A DNA stretch of 64,000 nucleotides from Gemmataceae bacterium (GCA_036266155.1 DATANR010000134.1:21526-85525), one strand, 5' to 3'; shown: positions 52,374 through 64,000, numbered from the stretch's first letter. The notes: generated by a model from the letters alone, not told the origin. Numbers and translations are program-made.

Positions 52374-53549
52374 CTACTTCCGCCGCCGCCGACGATCGTC
52401 CTCGTCATCATCCTCTTCGTCTTCGTAATCCTCGTCCTCGTCTTCCTCCTCGTACTCGTCCTCGGCCTCTTCGAGACCACGCTCGACGGCCGCGATCTTC
52501 GCCGCCAGTTCGGACGGTTTCTTGGCCTTGAGCAGGATTTCTTCCTTGTCCACCAGACCATTCTTCCACAAGCCGAACAGGTTGTCGTCGAGCAAAAACA
52601 TGCCGTATTTACGGCCGGTCTGGATCGACGAGTCGATGCGGTAAACCTTGTTTTCGCGGATGAGGTTCTGGATGGCATCCGTCACCACCATCATCTCGAA
52701 GGCCGCCACCAGTCCTTCGGGCTTCTTGGGCAGGATCGCCTGTGACAGCACACCGATCAGGGCGGTGGAAAGCTGCGTGCGGACCTGATCCTGTTGGTCC
52801 TTCGGGAAGACGTCGATGATTCGGTTGATGGTGGAAGCGGCGCCGGAGGTGTGCAGCGTGCCGAACACGATGTGGCCGGTTTCCGCGGCTTCGATGGCCG
52901 CGTGGATCGTGGCCAAGTCACGCATTTCGCCGACGAGGATGATGTCGGGGTCCATTCGCATGGCCCGGCGAATTCCTTCCTTGAAGTCGGGGACGTCGAC
53001 GCCGATTTCACGCTGATTGACCGTGCACTTCTTGTGTTTATGCTGGTATTCGATTGGGTCTTCCAACGTGACCACGTGCCGATCGTAGTTGTCGTTGATG
53101 AAGTTGATCATGCTCGCCAGGGTGGTCGTCTTGCCCGACCCGGTGGGGCCCGTGACCAGAATCAACCCGCGTGGTCGCACAATCAGCGAGCGAATCGCCT
53201 CGGGCATGCCGATCTGCTCGAACGTCAAGAACTGACTCGGAATGCGCCGGAGGACCATGCCGATCGAACCGCGCTGCTTGAAGATCGCGCAGCGGAAACG
53301 AACGCCCTCGAGATATTCGATGGCAAAGTCGGCGCCGCCTACCTCCTGAAGTTCTTGCTGGCACCGGTCCGGCGTGATGGCCTTCATCAAGGCGGTGGTG
53401 TCGTCGTTGTCGAGGCTTTTGGCTTCGAGCCGGCGCAGTCGTCCGTGATGGCGAATGACCGGCGGCTGGCCGACGGCGACGTGAAGGTCGCTCGCCTTCA
53501 ACTGAATGACCGTGGCCAGAAGTTTGTCGATCTGAAGAGACGAAGCCAC
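52374..53549 (-). CDS. pilT: type IV pilus retraction ATPase PilT with acidic C-terminal tail
   Basis: 391 aa. GTG start. GLILVTGPTGSGKTTT, DPDIILVGEMRD and GHIVFGTLHT motifs. Tail EEAEDEYEEEDEDEDYEDEEDDDEDDRRRRRK. Confidence 0.9.
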   Translation of the reverse strand: MASSLQIDKLLATVIQLKASDLHVAVGQPPVIRHHGRLRRLEAKSLDNDDTTALMKAITPDRCQQELQEVGGADFAIEYLEGVRFRCAIFKQRGSIGMVLRRIPSQFLTFEQIGMPEAIRSLIVRPRGLILVTGPTGSGKTTTLASMINFINDNYDRHVVTLEDPIEYQHKHKKCTVNQREIGVDVPDFKEGIRRAMRMDPDIILVGEMRDLATIHAAIEAAETGHIVFGTLHTSGAASTINRIIDVFPKDQQDQVRTQLSTALIGVLSQAILPKKPEGLVAAFEMMVVTDAIQNLIRENKVYRIDSSIQTGRKYGMFLLDDNLFGLWKNGLVDKEEILLKAKKPSELAAKIAAVERGLEEAEDEYEEEDEDEDYEDEEDDDEDDRRRRRK

Positions 53550-53692
53550 GTTGTTCTCCCCTGTCTGGCAGTCGGCCTCCCGTTCGTTGCGGGAGGGATA
53601 AAGTCGATCACCGTCCGACCAGGGTCAGGGTATTTCGGGCGCAAACTCCTGTCACGCCCGAATTATGCCCCGCGCCTGGACTTCGGCCAAAA

Positions 53693-55429
53693 CTACTTGG
53701 TCGCCTTGCCCACGCTGGCAAGCTCCGCCGCCTCCGCGTGGCACGTACTCAACACTTCTTCCAGGGTCGTCGTCCCCTTGAGCACTTTCAGCATCCCATC
53801 CTCCAGCAGGTTCCGCATGCCGTTTTGGCGGGCTATGCGGCGAATCTGCTGGGCGGGCGCCTGAGTGAACGTCAGTTCACGGATAACGGATGTCAGCTTC
53901 ATCATCTCAAAGATGCCCAGCCGACCGCGATAGCCTGATTGATTGCAGTGCGCGCAGCCAGTGCCACGCATGAAGGTCGCCTTGGCCAGCGCTTCGGGCT
54001 TGATGCCAGCCGATCGAATTTCCCCATCGGATGGCTTGTAAGGCTTCTTGCATTTCACGCAATTCACGCGCACCAATCGCTGGGCCATGATCGCGATCAC
54101 GGAGGATGCAATCAAGAACGGTTGGACACCAATATCAGCGAGGCGGGTAATAGCAGAGGGCGCGTCGTTCGTGTGAAGTGTACTGAATACCAAGTGTCCA
54201 GTCAAAGAAGCCTGTACCGCGATCTCAGCTGTCTCCTTGTCGCGAATCTCGCCGACGAGGATGATGTTCGGCGCTTGCCGCAACATCGCTCGAATGATCC
54301 GCTGAAAGTCCAAGCCAATTTGGTGCTTCACCTCGACCTGATTGATGCCCGGCAAGTAATACTCAACCGGGTCCTCGGCGGTGATGATCTTCCGATCTGG
54401 CCGGTTCAACTCGTTGAGCGCCGCATACAGCGTGGTTGTCTTGCCCGACCCTGTCGGCCCGGTGACCAAGAAGATGCCGTTCGGACGCTTGATGATTTGT
54501 TGGAACTTCACATAGTCGTCTTCACCGAAACCGAGATCGCGGATAGATACTTGGATGCTGCCACGATCAAGAATGCGCATGACCGTTCCCTGGCCATGCA
54601 CTGTCGGCAAGAGACTCACACGAAGATCGAAGTGTCGACCCTGGATATTGATCTTGATACGACCGTCCTGAGGTCGCCGCTTCTCGGCGATGTCGATCGA
54701 GGCCATGATCTTGAAACGCGAGGTCATCGATGCGAACAACCGACGCGGCACCGCATCGCGTTCAACCAGCACCCCGTCAATTCGGTAACGCACCCGGACG
54801 CGATCCGCGAACGGTTCAATGTGAATGTCAGAGGCGCGCTGGGCGACCGCTTCCTGAATGATGAGGTTGCAGAGTTTTACCACCGGCGCGTCAGAATAAT
54901 CGTCTTCTGCCGCTTGTTTCGACGCTTCCGTCTGCGTGAAGTCGATGGCGGTATCTGTAAATTCGACCAGCATCGAGTCCATCGACTCGGTTTCGGTCTG
55001 ACCGTAGTGCCGGTTGATCGCCTCACGGATCTGCTCGTGGTCGGCCAGAACCGGCTGGACGTCCTTGTTCAGAATGAACGTGAGTTTCTGGATAACGTCG
55101 TAGTTGGTCGGGTCCGATGTAATCACCTTGAGGACGTTGCCCTCGAGCGCCAGTGGAAGCACCACGTTTTCGCGAGCCACCGACTCGGGCACCAATTCGA
55201 TGACCGCCTTGGGGATTTCAACTTCCTCCAGGTTCACGAACTGGAGGTTGTGGAACTCAGCGATCGCCCCCATGACCTCGGCCTGGGTGGCGTAATTCAA
55301 CTTGACCAGGGCTTCCTGAAGCTTGATGCCCGTGCCGCTCGCCAGGCCCTCGGCCTCGGCCAGCTGATCGGGCCCGACCGTACCATTACGGATCAAGATG
55401 TCGAGAAAGTCACCGCGCGCTTTGGCCAT
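53693..55429 (-). CDS. GspE/PilB-family assembly ATPase
   Basis: 578 aa. T2SSE_N domain. GPTGSGKTTT. CVKCK..CAHC zinc motif. Confidence 0.9.
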   Translation of the reverse strand: MAKARGDFLDILIRNGTVGPDQLAEAEGLASGTGIKLQEALVKLNYATQAEVMGAIAEFHNLQFVNLEEVEIPKAVIELVPESVARENVVLPLALEGNVLKVITSDPTNYDVIQKLTFILNKDVQPVLADHEQIREAINRHYGQTETESMDSMLVEFTDTAIDFTQTEASKQAAEDDYSDAPVVKLCNLIIQEAVAQRASDIHIEPFADRVRVRYRIDGVLVERDAVPRRLFASMTSRFKIMASIDIAEKRRPQDGRIKINIQGRHFDLRVSLLPTVHGQGTVMRILDRGSIQVSIRDLGFGEDDYVKFQQIIKRPNGIFLVTGPTGSGKTTTLYAALNELNRPDRKIITAEDPVEYYLPGINQVEVKHQIGLDFQRIIRAMLRQAPNIILVGEIRDKETAEIAVQASLTGHLVFSTLHTNDAPSAITRLADIGVQPFLIASSVIAIMAQRLVRVNCVKCKKPYKPSDGEIRSAGIKPEALAKATFMRGTGCAHCNQSGYRGRLGIFEMMKLTSVIRELTFTQAPAQQIRRIARQNGMRNLLEDGMLKVLKGTTTLEEVLSTCHAEAAELASVGKATK

Positions 55430-55622
55430 GAGTCTGGCTCCAGGAAAATAGGCGGATACGGGTATCGGTCATGTCGACCGGCAGGTTGGACGGGAATGGG
55501 CCGACCTTTGGCCAAAGGCGAACCGGCGGATGACGAACGTCATTGGGACCTGAACAGCAACGTTGGCGAAGGTTCGAGAGGTCTGTGATGGTGGTAAGGT
55601 ACGCGGTCGCACGAGCTTCATG

Positions 55623-55655
55623 CAAGAGAAAAATGCCCGGAATTCGCGCCGGGCA
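55623..55655 (-). terminator. intrinsic-terminator-like hairpin + U-tract in the leader, ~200 nt upstream of the first pilus ATPase gene
   Basis: Minus strand: tgcccgg-cgcgaatt-ccgggca followed by TTTTTCTCTT (plus-strand stems at 55634-55640 and 55649-55655, A-run at 55625-55633). Confidence 0.5.
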
Positions 55656-55808
55656 CGGGAAACACCCGCCTTACCTGCACCGATCGACTACCGTCTATTG
55701 TGCCGGGTTCGACACGTACCAAGTGTCTGCGACGGGGCTTCGCCCGCGCGATCGAAATGCTATAACAACAATCTCGCCATCCGCCGCCTCTCCTATTGAT
55801 CCAACACG

Positions 55809-57368
55809 ATGCACACGCACTTCACGACTTTCGCCGCTGCTCTAACGTTGCCCGCTTTCCTTGTCGCCCAACCGGCCGCCAAGGATGCGCCCTCTCCGGG
55901 CGCGAAGATCAGCTACTACAAGGATGTTCGGCCCATCTTCCAGCAGCACTGCCAGGGCTGTCATCAGCCGGCCAAGCCGGGCGGCGGGTTTGTCATGACC
56001 TCCTTCCCGGACCTCTTTAGGGCCGGCGACAGCGACATGCCGGGCGTCGTTGCCGGCAAGCCGCAAGACAGCTTGCTTGTTAAGTTGCTGCATGAAGTGA
56101 AGGGGCGGGCCCAGATGCCCAAGGGCAAGGACCCGTTGCCGGAGCCGCAAATCAAGTTAATCGCCGACTGGGTCGCTCAGGGCGCGGCGGACGATACGCC
56201 TGAGTCGGCACGCGCACCGCTTGTCGATGCCGCACATCCGCCGACTTACGAACTGTTGCCGGTCCTCACGGCCGTCGCTTTCTCACCCGACGGCCAACTC
56301 CTGGCCGTCTCCGGTTACCACGAAGTGCTGCTCCACCGGGGCGACGGTTCCGGGCTGGCCGGTCGATTGATCGGTCTTTCCGAACGCATTCAATCGATCG
56401 CCTTCTCGCCCGACGGCAAGACACTGGCCGTGTCCGGCGGCGATCCCGGCCGATTCGGCGAAATCCAGCTCTGGGACGTCGCCAAGAAAACGCTGCGCCT
56501 GTCGATCCCACTGTCGTTTGACACCGTTTACGGCGTGAGCTGGTCACCGGACAACAAACTCGTCGCCTGCGGATGTGCCGACAACACGGTGCGGGCCTTC
56601 GACGCCGAGACCGGGAAGCAGGTTCTCTTTCAGGGCGCGCACTCCGACTGGGTCATGTCGACCGCGTTTTCGCAAGACGGCCAGCATCTCGTCTCGATCA
56701 GCCGGGATCGCTCCGTGAAGCTGACAGAGGTGCCGACCAACCGCTTCATCGACAACGTGACGAGCATCACGCCCGGTGCACTCAAGGGCGGCCTGCTCGC
56801 GCTCGACGTCCGACCAGCGAAGGACCCGAAGCCGGAGATCGCATCCAAGGTGGCGCTGGCGGCGGGGCAACCGCGGATCCCGGGCAACCTCGGCGCGCTC
56901 GCGCTGGCGGCCGTTCCACCGAAGAAGCGGATGACGGTGATCCCGCCCGACGCCAAGGACGTGCCGGCCAAGGTGTACGACGAACTCCTCTTTGCCGGCG
57001 CCGACGGCGTCCCGCGGCTGTACAAGATGCACCGCGAGGTCAAACGCGTGATTGGCGACGACGCGAACAAACTGCGTGAATACGAAAAGATGCCCGGCCG
57101 GATCTATGCGGTCGCCTTCGACAAGACAGGCCGCTACTTCGTCGCCGGCAGCAGCCTCGACGGGACGGGCGAAGCCCGCGTGTTTGAAGTCGACACCGCC
57201 AAGCGCGTCTCGTTATTCGAAGGCGTGAAGACCCCCGTCTACTCAGTCGCCTTCCGCCCGGACGGCAAGCTGGTCGCCACCGCCGGCTTCGACGGCGTCG
57301 TGCGTCTCTCGGACCCGATGACGGGGAAGTTAGCGAAGGAGTTCGTGCCGGTGCCGGAGAAGAAGTAG
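55809..57368 (+). CDS. planctomycete cytochrome c (PSCyt1-type) domain + WD40 repeat protein
   Basis: 519 aa. Signal peptide. YYKDVRPIFQQHCQGCHQPAKPGGGF contains CxxCH. WD40 blades [47 protein letters not shown] and FRPDGKLVATAGFDGVVRL. Confidence 0.85.
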   Translation: MHTHFTTFAAALTLPAFLVAQPAAKDAPSPGAKISYYKDVRPIFQQHCQGCHQPAKPGGGFVMTSFPDLFRAGDSDMPGVVAGKPQDSLLVKLLHEVKGRAQMPKGKDPLPEPQIKLIADWVAQGAADDTPESARAPLVDAAHPPTYELLPVLTAVAFSPDGQLLAVSGYHEVLLHRGDGSGLAGRLIGLSERIQSIAFSPDGKTLAVSGGDPGRFGEIQLWDVAKKTLRLSIPLSFDTVYGVSWSPDNKLVACGCADNTVRAFDAETGKQVLFQGAHSDWVMSTAFSQDGQHLVSISRDRSVKLTEVPTNRFIDNVTSITPGALKGGLLALDVRPAKDPKPEIASKVALAAGQPRIPGNLGALALAAVPPKKRMTVIPPDAKDVPAKVYDELLFAGADGVPRLYKMHREVKRVIGDDANKLREYEKMPGRIYAVAFDKTGRYFVAGSSLDGTGEARVFEVDTAKRVSLFEGVKTPVYSVAFRPDGKLVATAGFDGVVRLSDPMTGKLAKEFVPVPEKK

Positions 57369-57372
57369 TTTT

Positions 57373-58719
57373 TCACGGCTTCACCCGCACAAACTCCAGA
57401 ATCTGGCGACGTTTCCCATCCTTCGGATCGGCTGAGAAACTCTCCGGCGGCTTTCCGTCGGCCTGGTCACACATCCGCAATGTGTCACCTACGACTTCAT
57501 AGATGCCGGCGTGGACCTTCCCGTCGGCCAGCGGCTGCCTGTAGACGTGGGGCTTCTTCGCCTGATCGACGGTTATCGTGCTCTTCGACGTTTTCTTCTT
57601 GCCACCAGATTCCGTCTCGACCGACATCTCGTGGCCGTTGATCGTCATTTGGTAGTACGACGAGACCGCGAGAAAACTCTTTTCGCCCGGCGTGTATTTG
57701 TCGTACAGCGTCACGAGCTTCCAAGTTCCGTTGAGATTCGGATCGGATTTGCCCGAAACGGTTTCCTTCGCAGCGGTCTGCGGGGCAACCGCGTCAGGCG
57801 CGGTTTCCTTCGCAGCATTCAGCGGTGCAATCGCATCGCTTAGCCGAAACTCGCTGACTGTGGCGCCCTTCGCGATGGTGAACAGAAAGCCGAGCTTGGT
57901 CGGCGTTTGCTTGGGTGCGATCCGGATCGGTCCAACCGGATCGCCAGGCACGCGCGGCCAGATGTTGAGCGCGACATTTGACTTTGTGTTGCTCACGATG
58001 ATCGGGTCGCCATCCTTGGCGACGCTGATCGAGGTGGGGATCGTGTACCAGGTTTCGTTCGGCCCATCGTCCAGCATCGCGAAGCCCATGGCCGTTCGCC
58101 GCACTGTGTCCGCTTGCGCCGATTCGCGGGCCACCAGCATCACGCTGAAAAAATCGAAGCCTTGGTCCTTTTTCGGGTCGTCACTGGTGATATCGCAGAA
58201 GACTTCGACCAGTTCGTGACTCTCGTCCGCATCAATGATCCGGTTGAAATCCGCCTTCGCCTGCTTGGGCTTCCGCACGACGATATTGCTGACTTTCCAG
58301 ATCGCCGGCTTCGGCGGCGCGATCTCGACCGTTGGCTTGTCCTTCGTCTTTTCCGGTTGAGTTTTCTCGGTGATGCTTGTGGGAGGCGACTTGAGAGGTT
58401 CAGTCTTCGGAACCGTCACGGCCGCAACTGGCGTCGTCGATTCGGCGGCGGCGACCATGCGTGGGCTCTTTCCCATCGTCGAGCCGACGACGATGCCCGC
58501 AACTGCCGCCAGAATGACGAGTACCCCGGCGCCCGCGACCAACGGCCGGCCGATCCGAAAGCCATTCGCCGCGGTCGGCTCGGCTTCGGCTGGCACTGGA
58601 CGGACGATTGTCCGTCTCTGACACTTCGGGCAGGAAACTCGTTTACCAGCCGCCGCTGCCTTGGCACGCAACGGTCGATGACAATGGTCGCATTCGAATT
58701 GGATCGTGGCGGCGTGCAT
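57373..58719 (-). CDS. zinc-ribbon / single-TM / C-terminal TIGR03067-domain protein
   Basis: 448 aa from MHAATIQFECDHCHRPLRAKAAAAGKRVSCPKCQRR (the track start is a TTG 2 codons upstream). TM LVAGAGVLVILAAVAGIVVGS. C-terminal LNGTWKLVTL..AGIYEVVGDTLRMC..PPESF matches TIGR03067. Confidence 0.75.
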   Translation of the reverse strand: MHAATIQFECDHCHRPLRAKAAAAGKRVSCPKCQRRTIVRPVPAEAEPTAANGFRIGRPLVAGAGVLVILAAVAGIVVGSTMGKSPRMVAAAESTTPVAAVTVPKTEPLKSPPTSITEKTQPEKTKDKPTVEIAPPKPAIWKVSNIVVRKPKQAKADFNRIIDADESHELVEVFCDITSDDPKKDQGFDFFSVMLVARESAQADTVRRTAMGFAMLDDGPNETWYTIPTSISVAKDGDPIIVSNTKSNVALNIWPRVPGDPVGPIRIAPKQTPTKLGFLFTIAKGATVSEFRLSDAIAPLNAAKETAPDAVAPQTAAKETVSGKSDPNLNGTWKLVTLYDKYTPGEKSFLAVSSYYQMTINGHEMSVETESGGKKKTSKSTITVDQAKKPHVYRQPLADGKVHAGIYEVVGDTLRMCDQADGKPPESFSADPKDGKRRQILEFVRVKP

Positions 58720-58797
58720 GGCCAATCATCCCTACGGGGAGAAACGCCTGTTCTCCTTACTTACCGGGATAATGTGGCATGCGTTACAAGTTGGTGA

Positions 58798-60807
58798 TCA
58801 CTTCCCCTCTTTCACCTTCTCCAACTCAATCTCTGCCTTGAGCCGGGCGGCTTTGGCGCGAACGAGGCCCTGCTTCGATTGCTGACCGGCGTCATAGAGC
58901 TTTGTCATCGTCAGCTCGTATTCGCGGAGGTACTTCAACAGCTTCTCCAGGGCCGCGATTTTGGCTTCTTGCGTCGTGGCCAGATCCACCTCGGCATCGG
59001 CCAACTCGTGCACCGCGTCGAACAACGATGTCATCGAGTCCTTGCCCTGCTCGACTCGTTCAGTTTGCGTTTTCAGTTGTTCCTCGAGCGCCTTTACCCG
59101 CTCCTGCTTCAGTTCGTGCAGTCGCCCGGCAGGCAGCTTTGTTGTCGGCGGCGATGGCGGCGTTGTTGTCGGCGCCGGCGGCAGCTTCGCTTCCGAACCT
59201 TCGCGGACGAAGTACATGGTCGGCGGTCCGTCGGCGGCGTCAAACGTCGTCGGCCGATCCTTGGTATTCTCGTTGAGCCGCAGCTTCAAGACGTCGCGAT
59301 CGCGGGAGTAAATCCCCATCATGCGCAGGCCGCGGGACTCCGGACGGCCGGCGACGATCGTCATGTCGATCTGCCGAGGCGACGGTTCAAGATTGAGCGA
59401 ATAGTCCGCTTCGGTGAGCGGCACGCGGTCTGGCGGTGGTCGGAACGTGAGATGCTGACCTTTGAAGAGAAGGTTGGTGCCGGCCGTCTCGCGCCGCACG
59501 CCGCCTTGCTCCACCGCGACCAGCGTCCACGCTCCTTCGAGCGCCTTGCGTTCGTCGGCCGCCGGGTCTTTCGGCTGCTCCTTGGATCGTCGCAAAACGA
59601 TGTGCGTGAACGGCGGCCCCTTGTCGCTCGGCTCGAATGAATCAGGGCGTTCGTCCAAGTCGACGATGCCGAGGACTAGGTGCAACTTCTCGCCCTCAAA
59701 ACGGTAGATCGCGGGAATGCGAACCGTCGTCTTGGTCGTACCCGAGAGTACGTTCTGCATTTCAAAATCGATTCGCTTCTGATCCCATCCTGGATCGAGC
59801 GTGTAGAGACGCGGTCGGCCAGTGAAGCGACTGAAGCGCACGCTCGATCCGTCGAAAATCATTTCCTCATCCACCCAACTTGAAACGTCGTCGCCGCCGC
59901 TGCGCCGGGCGGACTCGATGACCCAGGCGCCTTTGAACCGCTCCGCATCGGAACGTGCCGGTTTCGTCGACTCGACGGATGGCGGCTGCTTGGGTGCATC
60001 CTTCGCACCGGGAGTTGGCCCAGCGCCGGCTGCCGGAACGAGCACGATACCCGCCGTCGCAGTCCCCAGCAGACAGACGCCGATCGCCGCCAGATTCGTC
60101 AGCTTCGTGATTGCCATGGCTCGGATCACTCCTTCGGCTAATTCGCGGGCGGCCGTGCTGCCGGCCAATCTTGTGGAATCGATCAACGCGGCCGGCACCG
60201 ACTCCGGCGCCAGGGCCGCTACAGTCAACACGCTGGGCACAATGCCGAGGCGCGTGAGTTTCATTCGTAATTTGACGCGAGCCCTTGCGAGCCGGCTGGA
60301 CAGCGTGCCTTCGCCGACGCCCAACTCCGCGGCCGCTTCGGCACGTGATCGACCGAGCACATCACATAGCAGGATCGGCCCGCGGTCGCGATCGGACAGC
60401 TTTGCCACGGCTGCGTCGAAGTGAGGAATCCAATCGACCGCGGTCTGTGCTGGTGGAGCGGCAATCGCGTCGAATTCCACCGAAGCCGGCAGACGCCGCG
60501 ACCGGCGTGCCTTGTTCGCCACGCGGACAGCGACGGCATACAGCCAGCGACTCAAACTGTCGGGCCGAATTGTGTGGGCCTTGCGGGCGAGGACCAGAAA
60601 CGCGGCTTGAAAGGCGTCTTCCGCATCGTGCACGTGTCCGAGGGATCGGCGACAGACCGCAAAGACCATTGGCCCGTGCCGGCGGACGAGTTGCGTGAAC
60701 GCGATTTCATCGCGCGTGGCGACGAACCGATGCAGCAGCTCGGCATCCGACGTGATCCCGTCCGCGACGAGCCGGTTTACGGTCCGGGCGAGCGTGTCGG
60801 CAACCAT
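58798..60807 (-). CDS. ECF sigma-70 factor fused to TM helix, two TIGR03067 domains and a coiled coil (paralogue 1)
   Basis: 669 aa from MVADTLARTV (cat 60805-60807). Sigma region 2 FTQLVRRHGPMVFAVCRRSL..DAEDAFQAAFLVLARKA. Region 4 ILLCDVLGRSRAEAAAELGVGEGTLSSRLARARVKL. TM LAAIGVCLLGTATAGIVLV. FKGAWVIESA.. and LEGAWTLVAV..MGIYSRDRDVLKL..RPTTFDA. Confidence 0.85.
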   Translation of the reverse strand: MVADTLARTVNRLVADGITSDAELLHRFVATRDEIAFTQLVRRHGPMVFAVCRRSLGHVHDAEDAFQAAFLVLARKAHTIRPDSLSRWLYAVAVRVANKARRSRRLPASVEFDAIAAPPAQTAVDWIPHFDAAVAKLSDRDRGPILLCDVLGRSRAEAAAELGVGEGTLSSRLARARVKLRMKLTRLGIVPSVLTVAALAPESVPAALIDSTRLAGSTAARELAEGVIRAMAITKLTNLAAIGVCLLGTATAGIVLVPAAGAGPTPGAKDAPKQPPSVESTKPARSDAERFKGAWVIESARRSGGDDVSSWVDEEMIFDGSSVRFSRFTGRPRLYTLDPGWDQKRIDFEMQNVLSGTTKTTVRIPAIYRFEGEKLHLVLGIVDLDERPDSFEPSDKGPPFTHIVLRRSKEQPKDPAADERKALEGAWTLVAVEQGGVRRETAGTNLLFKGQHLTFRPPPDRVPLTEADYSLNLEPSPRQIDMTIVAGRPESRGLRMMGIYSRDRDVLKLRLNENTKDRPTTFDAADGPPTMYFVREGSEAKLPPAPTTTPPSPPTTKLPAGRLHELKQERVKALEEQLKTQTERVEQGKDSMTSLFDAVHELADAEVDLATTQEAKIAALEKLLKYLREYELTMTKLYDAGQQSKQGLVRAKAARLKAEIELEKVKEGK

Positions 60808-60840
60808 CCGGGGCCCTCGGATCAATTCCGTCTACCATAT

Positions 60841-60869
60841 CTTGCCCCAAGGGATGGTAGCGCGTCCAT
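60841..60869 (-). promoter_or_regulatory. conserved ATGGACGCGC-N13-GGCAAG motif upstream of ECF paralogue 1
   Basis: rc of gcgcgtccat (60860-60869) and of cttgcc (60841-60846). The same motif with the same spacing lies upstream of paralogue 2, while the 13-nt spacer differs. Confidence 0.4.
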
Positions 60870-61138
60870 TTATTTGTTGCGGACAACTTGAAGTGCAGCA
60901 GGAATTGGTTGAAACCCAGAGACAGGCACTGCTTGATTCTTGGTGCTTTACTTACCCTCTCGGCACGGTCGCATCGTGCTGGGCCGGCATTCCGGTCCCG
61001 TTGTTGTGCTCCGCAGAGTTGGCGACCTTCCTTTTTGAAAAAGCCCGTTTTCCGCGGCAATTTGAGTAAGGTCGCCAAGATCGCCACGCTTTTGCCACAC
61101 CCACCCCTGACGATTTCATTGCATTGCATCCGACATTC

Positions 61139-61163
61139 CCCCCTCTCCGCTCTCGAGAGGGGG
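61139..61163. repeat. GC-rich hairpin of the CCCCTCTC..GAGAGGGG type
   Basis: ccccctctc (61139-61147), loop cgctctc, gagaggggg (61155-61163). It lies 27 nt downstream of the stop of ECF paralogue 2. The stem sequence is the same family as the hairpins at 44421-44520. Confidence 0.7.
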
Positions 61164-61189
61164 AGTAAGACCGATCTCTGAACCCGCCG

Positions 61190-63325
61190 TCACTTTCCAT
61201 CCTTCAACTTCTCTAACTCAATCTCCGCCTTGAGCCGGGCGGCTCGGACCTGGGCGACTGTGTGTTTCGTCTGCAGTTCAACTAACGGCTTCAACCCCGG
61301 CTTTGGCCCAGCCGGCAGGTTTGCCACGAATTCTTCGATTTCACGCAGTTGTTTTGTCCACTTTTCGATCGCCGCGATTCTGCTTTCGCGTGTCGTCGCC
61401 AGTTCCCGTTCGGAGTCGGCCAGCTCTCGAATCGCATCGAGCAACACAACCATTGAATCCTTGCCGATCTTGACGCGCTCGAACTGGTCGAGAAGCTGTT
61501 CCTCCAGGGCCTTCACCCGTTCCAATTGAAGATCGCGCAGCCGCTTGTTCGTCGTCGAAGTCACCGATTTCTGTTTGAGAGCCGGCGGCGAAGTCCCCGC
61601 CGGCCGCAGCAACTCCAACGCTGAGCGTGAGGACAGCGTCCGAGCCCGCATGAACACGTACGCGGCTCCGTCTTTGCCGGCGGTCTCAAAACTCGATGGG
61701 CGATCGGCGCCTCCGAGTGCCAGGTTCAAGAACACGCCGTGGCGGGCAAAGACGCCGCGTACACTTGCGCCTTTCTTGTATCCGCCTCCATCCTCCGAGA
61801 TCGTCAGGTCGATGTGCCATGGACTGGATGCGAGATCGATCGTAAACGTGGCATGGAGCGGGTCCGAGCCAGGGACGTCGAATCGGAGGCGATTGCCTTT
61901 GACAACGAGCTGAGTGTCCCGCGCCGGTTGCTCCTGACCCTTGACCGTTTCCAACAAACCCACCCACGTTCCCTGGAGGCCGTCGTGCTCGACGCTGTCC
62001 TGTAGCTTGCGTTCGTTGTCAGTGGGACGGCGAAGAAACAGATGCACGAACGGCGATTTCGGCCCGGACCACTCGAACGAGTCCGGCCGTTCGCGGAGTT
62101 CTTCGTCGCCGAGCACAATCAACAGTGTTTCCCCATCAAACTTGTAAATGCTCGGCCGCAGAATGTCGTTCCGCTGACCACTGAGGCCGCCCTGAGCTTC
62201 GCGGAACGTAAAGTCGATCCGCTTCGGGTCGCGGGCCGGATCGAGATGAAAAAGACGGAGGCTTCCCGGCAGCAAAATGGATTCCACGCGATCGCCCGTG
62301 AACGTAACAGTTCGGCCTTTGGCGTCGTTAGCCCAGGTCAAATTGTTGCGTCCACCGCCAAATCCGGTGCCGGCGCTACTAAGGACATCCGGGCTCGCCT
62401 TCGCCGACTCAATGATCCACGTCCCCTGAATCCGCGCAAGATCCGTATCTGCCTTCGGCGCCTCCTTTGTGGGCATCGAGGTCTTCGGATTCTCCGTGCT
62501 CTGCGTCGCCGGATCGGCCCCCGCCGCCGGCAGCCACGCGAAGCCGATCCCGATTGCTCCGAGGACCAGAACACTCGCGGCGGCGAGCTTCAGAATCTTG
62601 CTGAAAAACATGGTTTGTATCACTCCGGCAGCCAGTTCGTGAGCCGTGCTCGTCGAGGTGCTGGCCGCGATGGTTGATTCGAGCAATGACGGCCGCACCG
62701 TGGCCGTCGCCTGGCCCGTCAGTCCGGCAACGAGCGCCGGCGCCGACAATGCCGATCCCAGATGTGCCAACCTCAGCCGCAACTTCTCGCGGGCCCGCGT
62801 CAGCCGGCTGGAGAGCGTCCCCTCCGCGATGCCCAACTCGGCGGCCGCCTCCGCGCGCGATCGACCGAGCAGGTCGCAGAGCAGTATTGGTTGTCGGTCG
62901 CGTTCGGGCATCCGTGCCAACGCTGCGTCCAAGATCGGAATCCAATCCATCGATTGCGGTCCCGGCGGAGCAGCCACGGCATCGATGTCCGCCGCGCTCA
63001 TCCGCCGTCGCGACCGCCGCAGTCTTGCCTTGTGCGCGACGCGCACGGCGACGCCATACAGCCAGCGACTCACGCCATCGGATCGGATCAACTGCGCCTT
63101 GCGGGCGAGAATCAGAAACGTGGCCTGGAACGCATCCTCCGCGTCCTGCACGTGACCGAGCGATCGACGACAAACGCCGAAGACCATCGGCCCGTGCCGG
63201 CGAACGAGTTGCGCGAACGCATTCTCATCGCGCGTGGCGACGAACCGGCGCAACAACTCATCGTCCGACGTGAAACCGTCGGCGACTAGCCGGTTCACGG
63301 TCTGCACGAGCGTGTCGGCAACCAT
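61190..63325 (-). CDS. ECF sigma-70 factor fused to TM helix, two TIGR03067 domains and a coiled coil (paralogue 2)
   Basis: 711 aa. The N-terminal ~200 aa are closely similar to paralogue 1 (MVADTLVQTVNRLVADGFTSDDELLRRFVATRDENAFAQLVRRHGPMVFGVCRRSLGHVQDAEDAFQATFLILARKA). The C-terminal ARLKAEIELEKLKDGK is shared with paralogue 1. Confidence 0.85.
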   Translation of the reverse strand: MVADTLVQTVNRLVADGFTSDDELLRRFVATRDENAFAQLVRRHGPMVFGVCRRSLGHVQDAEDAFQATFLILARKAQLIRSDGVSRWLYGVAVRVAHKARLRRSRRRMSAADIDAVAAPPGPQSMDWIPILDAALARMPERDRQPILLCDLLGRSRAEAAAELGIAEGTLSSRLTRAREKLRLRLAHLGSALSAPALVAGLTGQATATVRPSLLESTIAASTSTSTAHELAAGVIQTMFFSKILKLAAASVLVLGAIGIGFAWLPAAGADPATQSTENPKTSMPTKEAPKADTDLARIQGTWIIESAKASPDVLSSAGTGFGGGRNNLTWANDAKGRTVTFTGDRVESILLPGSLRLFHLDPARDPKRIDFTFREAQGGLSGQRNDILRPSIYKFDGETLLIVLGDEELRERPDSFEWSGPKSPFVHLFLRRPTDNERKLQDSVEHDGLQGTWVGLLETVKGQEQPARDTQLVVKGNRLRFDVPGSDPLHATFTIDLASSPWHIDLTISEDGGGYKKGASVRGVFARHGVFLNLALGGADRPSSFETAGKDGAAYVFMRARTLSSRSALELLRPAGTSPPALKQKSVTSTTNKRLRDLQLERVKALEEQLLDQFERVKIGKDSMVVLLDAIRELADSERELATTRESRIAAIEKWTKQLREIEEFVANLPAGPKPGLKPLVELQTKHTVAQVRAARLKAEIELEKLKDGK

Positions 63326-63359
63326 CCAGGGTCCTCGGTGTCAGGTCCGACAAGTATGC

Positions 63360-63388
63360 CTTGCCCGCTCGGGCCGCGGCGCGTCCAT
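63360..63388 (-). promoter_or_regulatory. conserved ATGGACGCGC-N13-GGCAAG motif upstream of ECF paralogue 2
   Basis: rc of gcgcgtccat (63379-63388) and of cttgcc (63360-63365). It overlaps the stop codon of the upstream gene. Confidence 0.4.
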
Positions 63389-64000
63389 CATTTTTTCGCA
63401 GGCTTCAAAGATTTGGCCCATTCATCAAACTCGGGCCGGCCGCGGAGGACCGCGAGATCGGTGTCCTTGACGCGAATGTGCTCGACATCGGTCGCCGTGG
63501 CCGGGTAACCGACGGCCTCCGCTTTCTTGAGCCAGGTCATCGCCTTGCCGCACAATTCATCGCGCGCCGATCCCTCAGCGCCTGTGGCCAGACGTGCGAA
63601 GAAGCAACCAATGTTGTAAGCCGGCACCGCGGTCCAACTCGGTAGATCGGGATTCAGGTCACCCATCATCTGGATGGCTTCGAGCCTTGAGCCGCTCTCC
63701 AACAAATCGCGGGCGTGACCCACCATCAAGTTTTGGCGTATTTGATGGAACCAGAGCCCCTTCGGCAGTTCGCTGAATGCGGGGAAGTCGCGGAACAAAG
63801 CACTCATCAGTTCGACGGCGCGACCGGATGCGACCGCCGCCTCCCTGAACCGCTTTTTCGCTCCGCGAAGTTCCGATAGGAGGGAGTAGGCCTGGACGGT
63901 TTGCATTCGATAGGGGAACGCTCGCGGCTGACCGACGATGAGTGACTCATAATCGCGGGCCACCTCCTCGATCAGTCGTTCGGCCTGATCGGCCCGTCCC
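63388..64000 (-). CDS. C-terminal part of a TPR-like helical-repeat protein; start beyond the right edge
   Basis: The track start at 63963 is a GTG. The frame stays open upstream to the window end (..GRADQAERLIEEVARDYES..). Helical-repeat composition. Confidence 0.6.
   Translation of the reverse strand, partial: GRADQAERLIEEVARDYESLIVGQPRAFPYRMQTVQAYSLLSELRGAKKRFREAAVASGRAVELMSALFRDFPAFSELPKGLWFHQIRQNLMVGHARDLLESGSRLEAIQMMGDLNPDLPSWTAVPAYNIGCFFARLATGAEGSARDELCGKAMTWLKKAEAVGYPATATDVEHIRVKDTDLAVLRGRPEFDEWAKSLKPAKK

Follow-up and report, generated by a model that had tools for sequence, protein, structure and literature searches.

Two neighboring genes on the minus strand of a 64,000-nucleotide stretch of DNA from a Gemmataceae bacterium (GCA_036266155.1, DATANR010000134.1:21526-85525; hereafter the window) encode complete sigma factors of the extracytoplasmic function (ECF) type, which continue, within one polypeptide, into a predicted transmembrane (TM) helix and a long C-terminal tail. 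They are gene A at 61190..63325, a protein of 711 amino acids (aa) defined by its open reading frame (ORF), profile domains, and AlphaFold2 (AF2) models, and gene B at 58798..60807, a protein of 669 aa with the same architecture. A third gene on the same strand, gene C at 57373..58725, encodes a zinc-ribbon membrane protein. The architecture of A and B is real and belongs to a large, already described planctomycete family. In our view, it is rather probable that A and B are one-component transmembrane sensors, whose sigma domain would be freed by regulated proteolysis. Useful additions made here are an upstream cassette that appears specific to this orthogroup, a TIGR03067 domain that is predicted to be exported and lipocalin-like, and a conserved juxtamembrane motif. 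All features of A, B, and C given below lie on the minus strand, and their coordinates are those of the window.

The N-terminal parts of A and B are complete ECF sigma factors. Both match Sigma70_r2 and Sigma70_r4_2 with scores above the Pfam cut-offs, and the ECF superfamily model TIGR02937 (cut-off 42.9 bits) gives 65.7 and 60.3 bits for the two proteins. An earlier note on this DNA, made from the sequence alone, had read sigma regions 2 and 4 in the 669-aa and 711-aa proteins, which these Pfam and NCBIfam scores bear out. As expected for ECF (group 4) sigma factors, only sigma2 and sigma4 are found, with neither sigma3 nor sigma1.1. The solved ECF sigma factors in the PDB (SigE, CnrH, RpoE, SigL, and SigW) align to residues 22-190, and none of them extends further. 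In A, the ECF core comprises residues ~20-190 (62756..63268) according to Pfam/NCBIfam profiles, PDB alignment, and an AF2 model of residues 1-290—based on 79 sequences—in which sigma2 and sigma4 reach predicted local distance difference test (pLDDT) values >90. This core bears one cysteine in sigma2 (GVCRR) and one in sigma4 (LLCD). The pair, written generally as GVCRR and (L/V)LC(D/E), is nearly invariant across 28 paralogues from the same genome and 79 homologues.

The core is followed by a linker and one TM helix (residues 191-243 and 244-266 in A, together 62528..62755), as judged by hydrophobicity scan, conserved motifs, and AF2. A Kyte–Doolittle scan finds a single strongly hydrophobic segment of 19-23 residues in each protein: residues 244-266 in A, 245-267 in B (675-aa numbering; 60025..60093), and 61-83 in C. 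The topology prediction proposed in the earlier note thus returns one TM segment per protein. The linker of ~55 aa is predicted to be flexible over about 25-55 residues. In the AF2 model of A, residues ~195-225 reach a pLDDT of only 45-63, and the TM segment lies, along with the juxtamembrane motif, on a single long helix (residues 212-263). The motifs VPxxL...T and L.EGV..M..K, which immediately precede the TM helix, are conserved in the same 28 paralogues and 79 homologues. Neither zf-HC2 nor RskA nor FecR gives a match in the linker, even at E<=5, and this, together with the low linker pLDDT, means that nothing points to an anti-sigma domain in cis. Pfam/NCBIfam profile searches recognize no anti-sigma family in any of the three genes or in those that flank them, in agreement with the earlier statement that a separate anti-sigma gene is missing here. 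FecR and TonB-receptor matches are likewise absent from A, B, and the neighboring genes, and WD40 matches from A and B.

The C-terminal extensions of A and B measure 480-520 aa and bear two TIGR03067 stretches each, with 73 bits for A and 79 bits for B against a cut-off of 40.15. In A, domain 1 (residues 294-418; 62072..62446) is a profile match that AF2 models as a β-barrel, and domain 2 (61685..61990; 39.1 bits in the genome search) coincides with a second modeled barrel. In B, the two domains are profile matches at 59632-59952 and 59239-59559 (span 59239..59952). The end of A is a four-helix coiled-coil region (residues ~590-709; 61199..61558), modeled at a pLDDT of ~90. Hence, scans, profiles, and AF2 agree with the order that had been read from the sequence, in which one TM helix precedes two TIGR03067 domains and the C-terminus forms a coiled coil, and the quoted motifs—GTW/GAW, RP..F, and the ending ARLKAEIELEK(L/V)K(D/E)GK—are all present in the translations.

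The AF2 model of A residues 286-711 (33 sequences) reaches a mean pLDDT of 87. Two all-β domains, each with about eight strands, are separated by a spacer of low confidence from four helices of 18-30 residues. A Foldseek search of the A tail against the PDB returns nothing at E<=1e-3. At the level of single domains, 4qrl and 5byp, both lipocalin-like, match best (probability 0.99, target TM-score 0.54-0.56), and FABP/P2 and retinol-binding proteins come next. This gives moderate confidence that TIGR03067 is a small lipocalin-like β-barrel, and such a fold fits the Pfam lipocalin-like tails found on sister sigma factors. For the helical region of A, an OEP/TolC-like match of 20.2 bits stays under its cut-off of 22.

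The cellular location of the tails can be approached via the other TIGR03067 copies of this genome, which comprises 8.2 Mb in 510 contigs. It holds ~50 TIGR03067 domains, mostly in stand-alone ORFs of 140-200 aa, and 23 of 24 stand-alone ORFs show a signal-peptide-like hydrophobic N-terminus directly before the domain. This argues that TIGR03067 is an exported domain and that the tails of A and B, by extension, lie in the periplasm. The family would thereby gain both a fold and a cellular location; a literature search for TIGR03067 found no mention of it. Outside the window, on contig C482 (7315-12055), a tandem array of ~11 small genes (140-165 aa) encodes signal-peptide-bearing TIGR03067 proteins.

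A and B are part of a large family. A homologue search scored 8,000 candidates, of which >4,100 are significant relatives. About 35 of these are full-length homologues with 40-60% identity at 94-100% coverage, mostly from soil and freshwater metagenomes and from Gemmataceae metagenome-assembled genomes. Aligned over the tail, 32 full-length homologues show 30-58% identity and many invariant residues. Other relatives have the head in common and bear different tails—WD40, lipocalin-like PF13648, DUF1559, TPR, HlyD-like, or OEP-like—with P0063 and P0093 as examples of a matching head on a WD40 tail, and some carry one or three TIGR03067 domains. Within the genome itself, a phmmer search with the sigma head finds 28 long-tailed paralogues of 438-1172 aa at 89-404 bits, next to ~16 ordinary short ECFs at <=51 bits. 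The tails of the 28 paralogues range from 250 to 980 aa, and in about 24 of them sigma4 is followed at a distance of 50-70 residues by a hydrophobic helix. One of the 28 is located ~5 kb past the window end, on the plus strand of the same contig (C134:90454-92943; L015 5455-7944).

This recurrence bears on the suspicion that such fusions are artefacts or decaying genes, stemming from a frameshifted sigma/anti-sigma pair or from mis-assembly. One same-genus genome (G002) offers a case of this kind: its A-type orthologue (L013 8670-10821) is split into overlapping ORFs, a head of 278 aa and a tail of 491 aa, by a frameshift that reflects either a pseudogene or an assembly error. In the window, however, both ORFs are uninterrupted, the full-length architecture recurs in >30 independent assemblies, and a tail with invariant residues that models at a pLDDT of 87 does not resemble decaying sequence. 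The conserved full-length orthologues refute this explanation, which we regard as hardly credible for A and B.

Over their full length, the A and B proteins are 47% identical, and each of them is nearer to an orthologue elsewhere (52% or 58%) than to its neighbor. A recent tandem duplication is therefore rejected, and A and B appear to be old paralogues.

This planctomycete family has a precedent in the ECF classification. Judged by described features rather than by the group hidden Markov models (HMMs) of the ECF Hub, A and B match ECF57 (formerly ECF01-Gob). The features found are a cysteine in both sigma2 and sigma4, a long C-terminal extension, the lack of an anti-sigma gene, and many copies per genome; the WD40-like repeats of the extension, a prevalent and not a universal mark of the group, are not present in A or B. 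ECF57, or ECF01-Gob, is reportedly described by Jogler et al. 2012 as a Planctomycetes-enriched group with long C-terminal extensions. In the more recent description, WD40-like repeats are prevalent in these extensions, with an example from the planctomycete Singulisphaera, and the two conserved cysteines could link sigma2 with sigma4, for which a conformational role is proposed (PMC8999054). A number of 5.3 ECF57 copies per planctomycete genome was given by Casas-Pastor et al. (bioRxiv version; published 2021, PMC7826278), and planctomycete ECFs were shown to duplicate and to gain unrelated C-terminal extensions (Pinto and da Fonseca, PMC7671368). With 28 paralogues in one genome and a head that matches the ECF57 description, the design is not unusual. 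The earlier note had stated that its reading would fall if the fusion belonged to an already characterized ECF group with a known mechanism. The group has indeed been described, while its mechanism is not experimentally known.

Both sigma genes are preceded by a conserved cassette of ~65 nt, which has the general form A-tract, TGGACGCGC, N13, GGCAAGGTATCATCGACGG, GAGGGCCCCGG, ATG. At gene A (63326..63397), it reads A-tract, TGGACGCGC, a 13-nt spacer, GGCAAGGCAT..GTCGGA, GAGGA, and ATG; at gene B (60808..60878), it reads AAATAAATGGACGCGC-N13-GGCAAGATATGGTAGACGGA..GAGGGCCCCGG-ATG. After the non-conserved 13-nt spacer, the boxes GGCAAG(G/A)(C/T)AT, (G/C)(T/A)CGGA, and GAGG(G/A)CCC are common to both. 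The cassette also helps to define gene B: its ORF at 58798-60825 would encode 675 aa if started at TTG, and the ATG at 60807 is preferred because of the conserved Shine–Dalgarno-like GAGGG box and the starts of the orthologues.

The cassette is kept in 13 loci: those of A and B plus L001, L003, L004, L005, L009, L013, and L135-L139. Six orthologous loci have it though their proteins share only 42-58% identity with A or B, whichever is nearer. When metagenomes are scanned with a strict pattern, five matches come up, and each of them precedes an orthologous sigma gene by 18-24 nt. Within the source genome, no site other than those at A and B carries the composite motif, even when three mismatches over the two boxes are permitted. 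The cassette thus looks specific to the A/B sigma orthogroup. A looser scan of genome contigs for GGACGCGC-N12-14-GGCAAGRTA produced chance-level matches only, from unrelated phyla.

Since the boxes are conserved and the spacer length is fixed, the cassette can be read as a promoter, plausibly an autoregulatory one as is typical of ECFs, and we treat the 13-nt spacer as a promoter spacer. A conserved RNA hairpin in the spacer was considered and rejected: short GC palindromes appear in several loci, and their position and presence are inconsistent over the 13. A sigma70 promoter does not fit either, as TGGACG and TATCAT are 23 nt apart and a consensus scan finds no sigma70-type promoter. A leaderless arrangement with GGCAAG as −35 and CCGAGG as −10 is possible. 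At the other end of gene A, 27 nt past its stop, there is a GC-rich hairpin (61139..61163), whose stem measures 10 bp and which lacks a U-tract. It may serve as a Rho-independent-like terminator or for processing, and it would fit separate transcription units for A and B.

Taken together, these elements could work as follows. The N-terminal ~190 residues would reside in the cytoplasm as a complete ECF sigma factor, from which a flexible linker of ~55 aa with the juxtamembrane motif would lead to the one TM helix. The C-terminal ~440 residues, comprising two lipocalin-like barrels and the four-helix coiled coil, would jointly form the sensor in the periplasm. Tethering would keep the sigma domain from most of the chromosomal RNA polymerase. 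A signal at the barrels or at the coiled coil would then most likely lead to a site-1 trimming of the periplasmic part, followed by an intramembrane cut by an RseP-type M50 protease, as demonstrated for Pseudomonas putida IutY. Once freed, the sigma domain would direct transcription—probably including that of its own gene via the upstream cassette—and C would be transcribed along with B in this genome. We infer the cleavage, the signal, the autoregulation, and the regulon from architecture and precedent.

The precedents are those of fused sigma factors. For IutY, activation by regulated intramembrane proteolysis (RIP) has been shown, Prc making the first cut and RseP the second (PMC5411451). 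A review covers such activation in fused sigma factors, and it is proposed for ECF48, ECF52, and ECF53 (PMC8999054). The search for site-1 and site-2 protease genes that the earlier note had suggested finds candidates of both types in the source genome: two M50 RseP-like genes (a 783-aa ORF on contig C440 and a 427-aa ORF on C346) and eight S41 genes. The same note had held that proteolytic release is implied by the membrane anchor. In light of the IutY and ECF52 precedents (PMC5411451, PMC8999054), we take such release to be plausible.

Several points weigh against proteolytic release with autoregulation by an ECF57-like factor. M50 and S41 proteases are near-universal, which makes their presence weak and merely permissive evidence. 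The ECF57 placement follows described features and not the ECF Hub HMMs. The genome holds no further copy of the cassette, so that either the regulon sites are degenerate or another factor reads the cassette; moreover, it deviates from the standard sigma70 −35/−10 spacing.

The same architecture might also operate without any release. The sigma domain could work, or be switched on, while tethered—via a conformational or oligomeric change passed through the TM helix or via a redox or metal switch at the cysteine pair—and RNA polymerase might be recruited to the heavily invaginated planctomycete membrane. The sigma2/sigma4 cysteine pair is conserved family-wide, and a conformational role has been proposed for it in ECF57 (PMC8999054). 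The long, predictedly flexible linker (about 25-55 residues) makes a tethered holoenzyme sterically conceivable, and the modeled C-terminal coiled coil could mediate dimerization. Gemmataceae membranes are deeply invaginated, and ECF paralogues of Tuwongella immobilis, a member of the Gemmataceae, were recovered in detergent-soluble fractions, i.e., ECF proteins fractionate with membranes (PMC8567305). This fractionation fits membrane anchoring and does not separate the release from the tethered model. Against this, a sigma factor functioning while membrane-bound has no precedent, and the sole fused sigma factor with demonstrated processing, IutY, needs proteolysis, with indirect support for SCO4117 (PMC5411451, PMC8999054). 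The conserved juxtamembrane motif equally fits a protease recognition site. Action in the tethered state is hence unlikely in our view.

A more far-reaching version of the sensor can also be drawn up. Head, juxtamembrane motif, and TM helix might form a self-contained signaling module without any anti-sigma surface, which would run a one-gene positive feedback via its private upstream element; the barrels might bind a small hydrophobic ligand from the envelope or the environment, and the coiled coil might span the periplasm. Should the sigma domain in addition act while tethered to the invaginated membrane, sigma-factor control of a new mode would result. As a whole, we hold this to be quite unlikely and offer it as speculation.

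Gene C was described in the earlier note as a 448-aa neighbor with a CxxC..CxxC ribbon, a TM helix, and the same periplasmic domain. These elements are present, with the TIGR03067 match being borderline. C encodes 448 aa from ATG or 450 aa from TTG and comprises the zinc ribbon (58615-58692; CDHC..x17..CPKC), the TM helix (58477-58545; residues 61-83), an orphan middle domain between the TM helix and the TIGR03067 domain, and, at threshold, the TIGR03067 domain itself (57436-57738), which scores 38.8 bits in the protein search and 41.7 bits in the genome search at a cut-off of 40.15. The public gene call for C starts at Val44 and yields 407 aa, which omits the CxxC..CxxC ribbon (58596-58725). 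The longer start is favored because homologues bear the ribbon at their extreme N-terminus (e.g., L140 50-2065).

The same note proposed C as a dedicated co-sensor or anti-sigma-like partner, whose zinc ribbon would bind the sigma domains and whose TIGR03067 domain would bind the tails. Such a role is suggested by the position of C, on the sigma strand and 72 nt downstream of B. The gap has no terminator-like site, so that co-transcription of B and C is likely, and C is probably co-transcribed with B. C also has the TIGR03067 domain type in common with A and B, and with ~40 TIGR03067 genes in 8.2 Mb, adjacency by chance would be uncommon. However, the TIGR03067 domain of C shows no special likeness to its counterparts in A or B. 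The cytoplasmic part of C measures only ~55 aa with CxxC-x17-CxxC, gives weak generic zinc-ribbon matches, and shows no match to the anti-sigma families zf-HC2 or RskA. Class I and ZAS anti-sigma factors, in comparison, have an N-terminal domain of ~80-90 aa with four helices, HxxxCxxC in the ZAS case, and a conserved adjacency to their sigma gene, a description that C does not fit. By these features, C does not appear to be an anti-sigma factor.

Conserved gene order speaks in the same direction. Seven orthologous sigma loci were available for comparison—L001, L003, L004, L005, one without DNA, and two from same-genus genomes—and in all seven there is neither a C-like neighbor nor a second sigma gene. 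Where the locus has flanking sequence, the next called gene lies on the opposite strand or is a short ORF of no relation, or else the contig ends before any such gene. Four same-genus genomes with the sigma orthologue contain no homologue of the zinc-ribbon or middle part of C. In four of five metagenomic loci, a 340-aa GFO_IDH_MocA oxidoreductase is located divergently upstream of the sigma orthologue (L001 6381-7403; L003 6398-7420; L004 4777-5799; P0008 locus). This gene is missing at the pair in the window, which suggests that the sigma pair sits in a rearranged context here.

The relatives of C point elsewhere. A word-based homologue search had found only C itself, and an exhaustive search was needed, which depicts C as a mosaic whose zinc ribbon (residues 3-50) has its matches at the very N-terminal end of many proteins. 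TIGR03067 is missing from its two closest relatives, P0122 (46% identity over residues 3-307) and P0124, and their genes adjoin a convergent PSCyt1-WD40 gene; beyond P0122, a PilB-type ATPase follows. Between the window (53134-58725) and L140, the order of PilB ATPase, PSCyt1-WD40 protein, and zinc-ribbon membrane protein is kept, with 78% nucleotide identity for the PilB and PSCyt1-WD40 genes. In the window, the stops of C and of the convergent PSCyt1-WD40 gene are 4 nt apart (57366-57375), with no terminator between them. On both contigs that bear C homologues, the sequence breaks off ~50 nt upstream of that homologue, and a preceding sigma gene would not be visible there, which leaves some room for the proposed partnership. 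With no C-like gene at seven sigma loci, no C homologue in four same-genus genomes, and relatives tied to the WD40-cytochrome/PilB block, the partnership is very doubtful. C does not look like a conserved partner of the sigma genes; it probably belongs to the WD40-cytochrome/pilus block and gained its TIGR03067 tail in this lineage. The zinc-ribbon "partner" can thus be removed as a false lead.

Planctomycetes are very rich in ECF sigma factors with a membrane anchor, with 28 in one genome and >4,000 relatives. For the question of how a membrane-bound sigma factor reaches RNA polymerase in these bacteria, the A/B orthogroup is a convenient test case, as it is compact, has a confidently modeled sensor of two lipocalin-like barrels and a coiled coil, and bears a sharply conserved, orthogroup-specific cassette that is directly usable as a reporter.

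Among known systems, ECF57 is the nearest to A and B: both are of planctomycete origin, occur in many copies per genome, have the cysteines in sigma2 and sigma4 and a long extension, and lack an adjacent anti-sigma gene. They differ in the extension, which carries WD40-like repeats in ECF57 and two TIGR03067 domains plus a coiled coil here. IutY, the sigma/anti-sigma hybrid of ECF243, is likewise one polypeptide, in which a single TM helix joins an ECF domain in the cytoplasm to a periplasmic part. Its FecI-type sigma factor, its FecR-type anti-sigma domain, and its drive by a TonB-dependent receptor are its own, and none of them is detected for A and B; the likeness hence concerns a possible working mode and not family membership. 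The actinobacterial groups ECF52, ECF48, and ECF53 (e.g., SCO4117 of Streptomyces coelicolor) also join an ECF core via TM helices to a sensing domain outside the cytoplasm, and they are proposed to be activated by proteolysis (PMC8999054). Between sigma4 and the membrane, they bear an anti-sigma module of the zinc-finger (ZAS-like) type, where the linker of A and B has neither such a motif nor a Pfam match. On the sensor side, the tail domains of A and B score above the cut-off for TIGR03067 (NCBIfam Planc_TIGR03067), most copies of which in the same genome are small, secreted, stand-alone proteins, and the modeled barrels in the tail of A resemble those of the lipocalin-like proteins 4qrl and 5byp.

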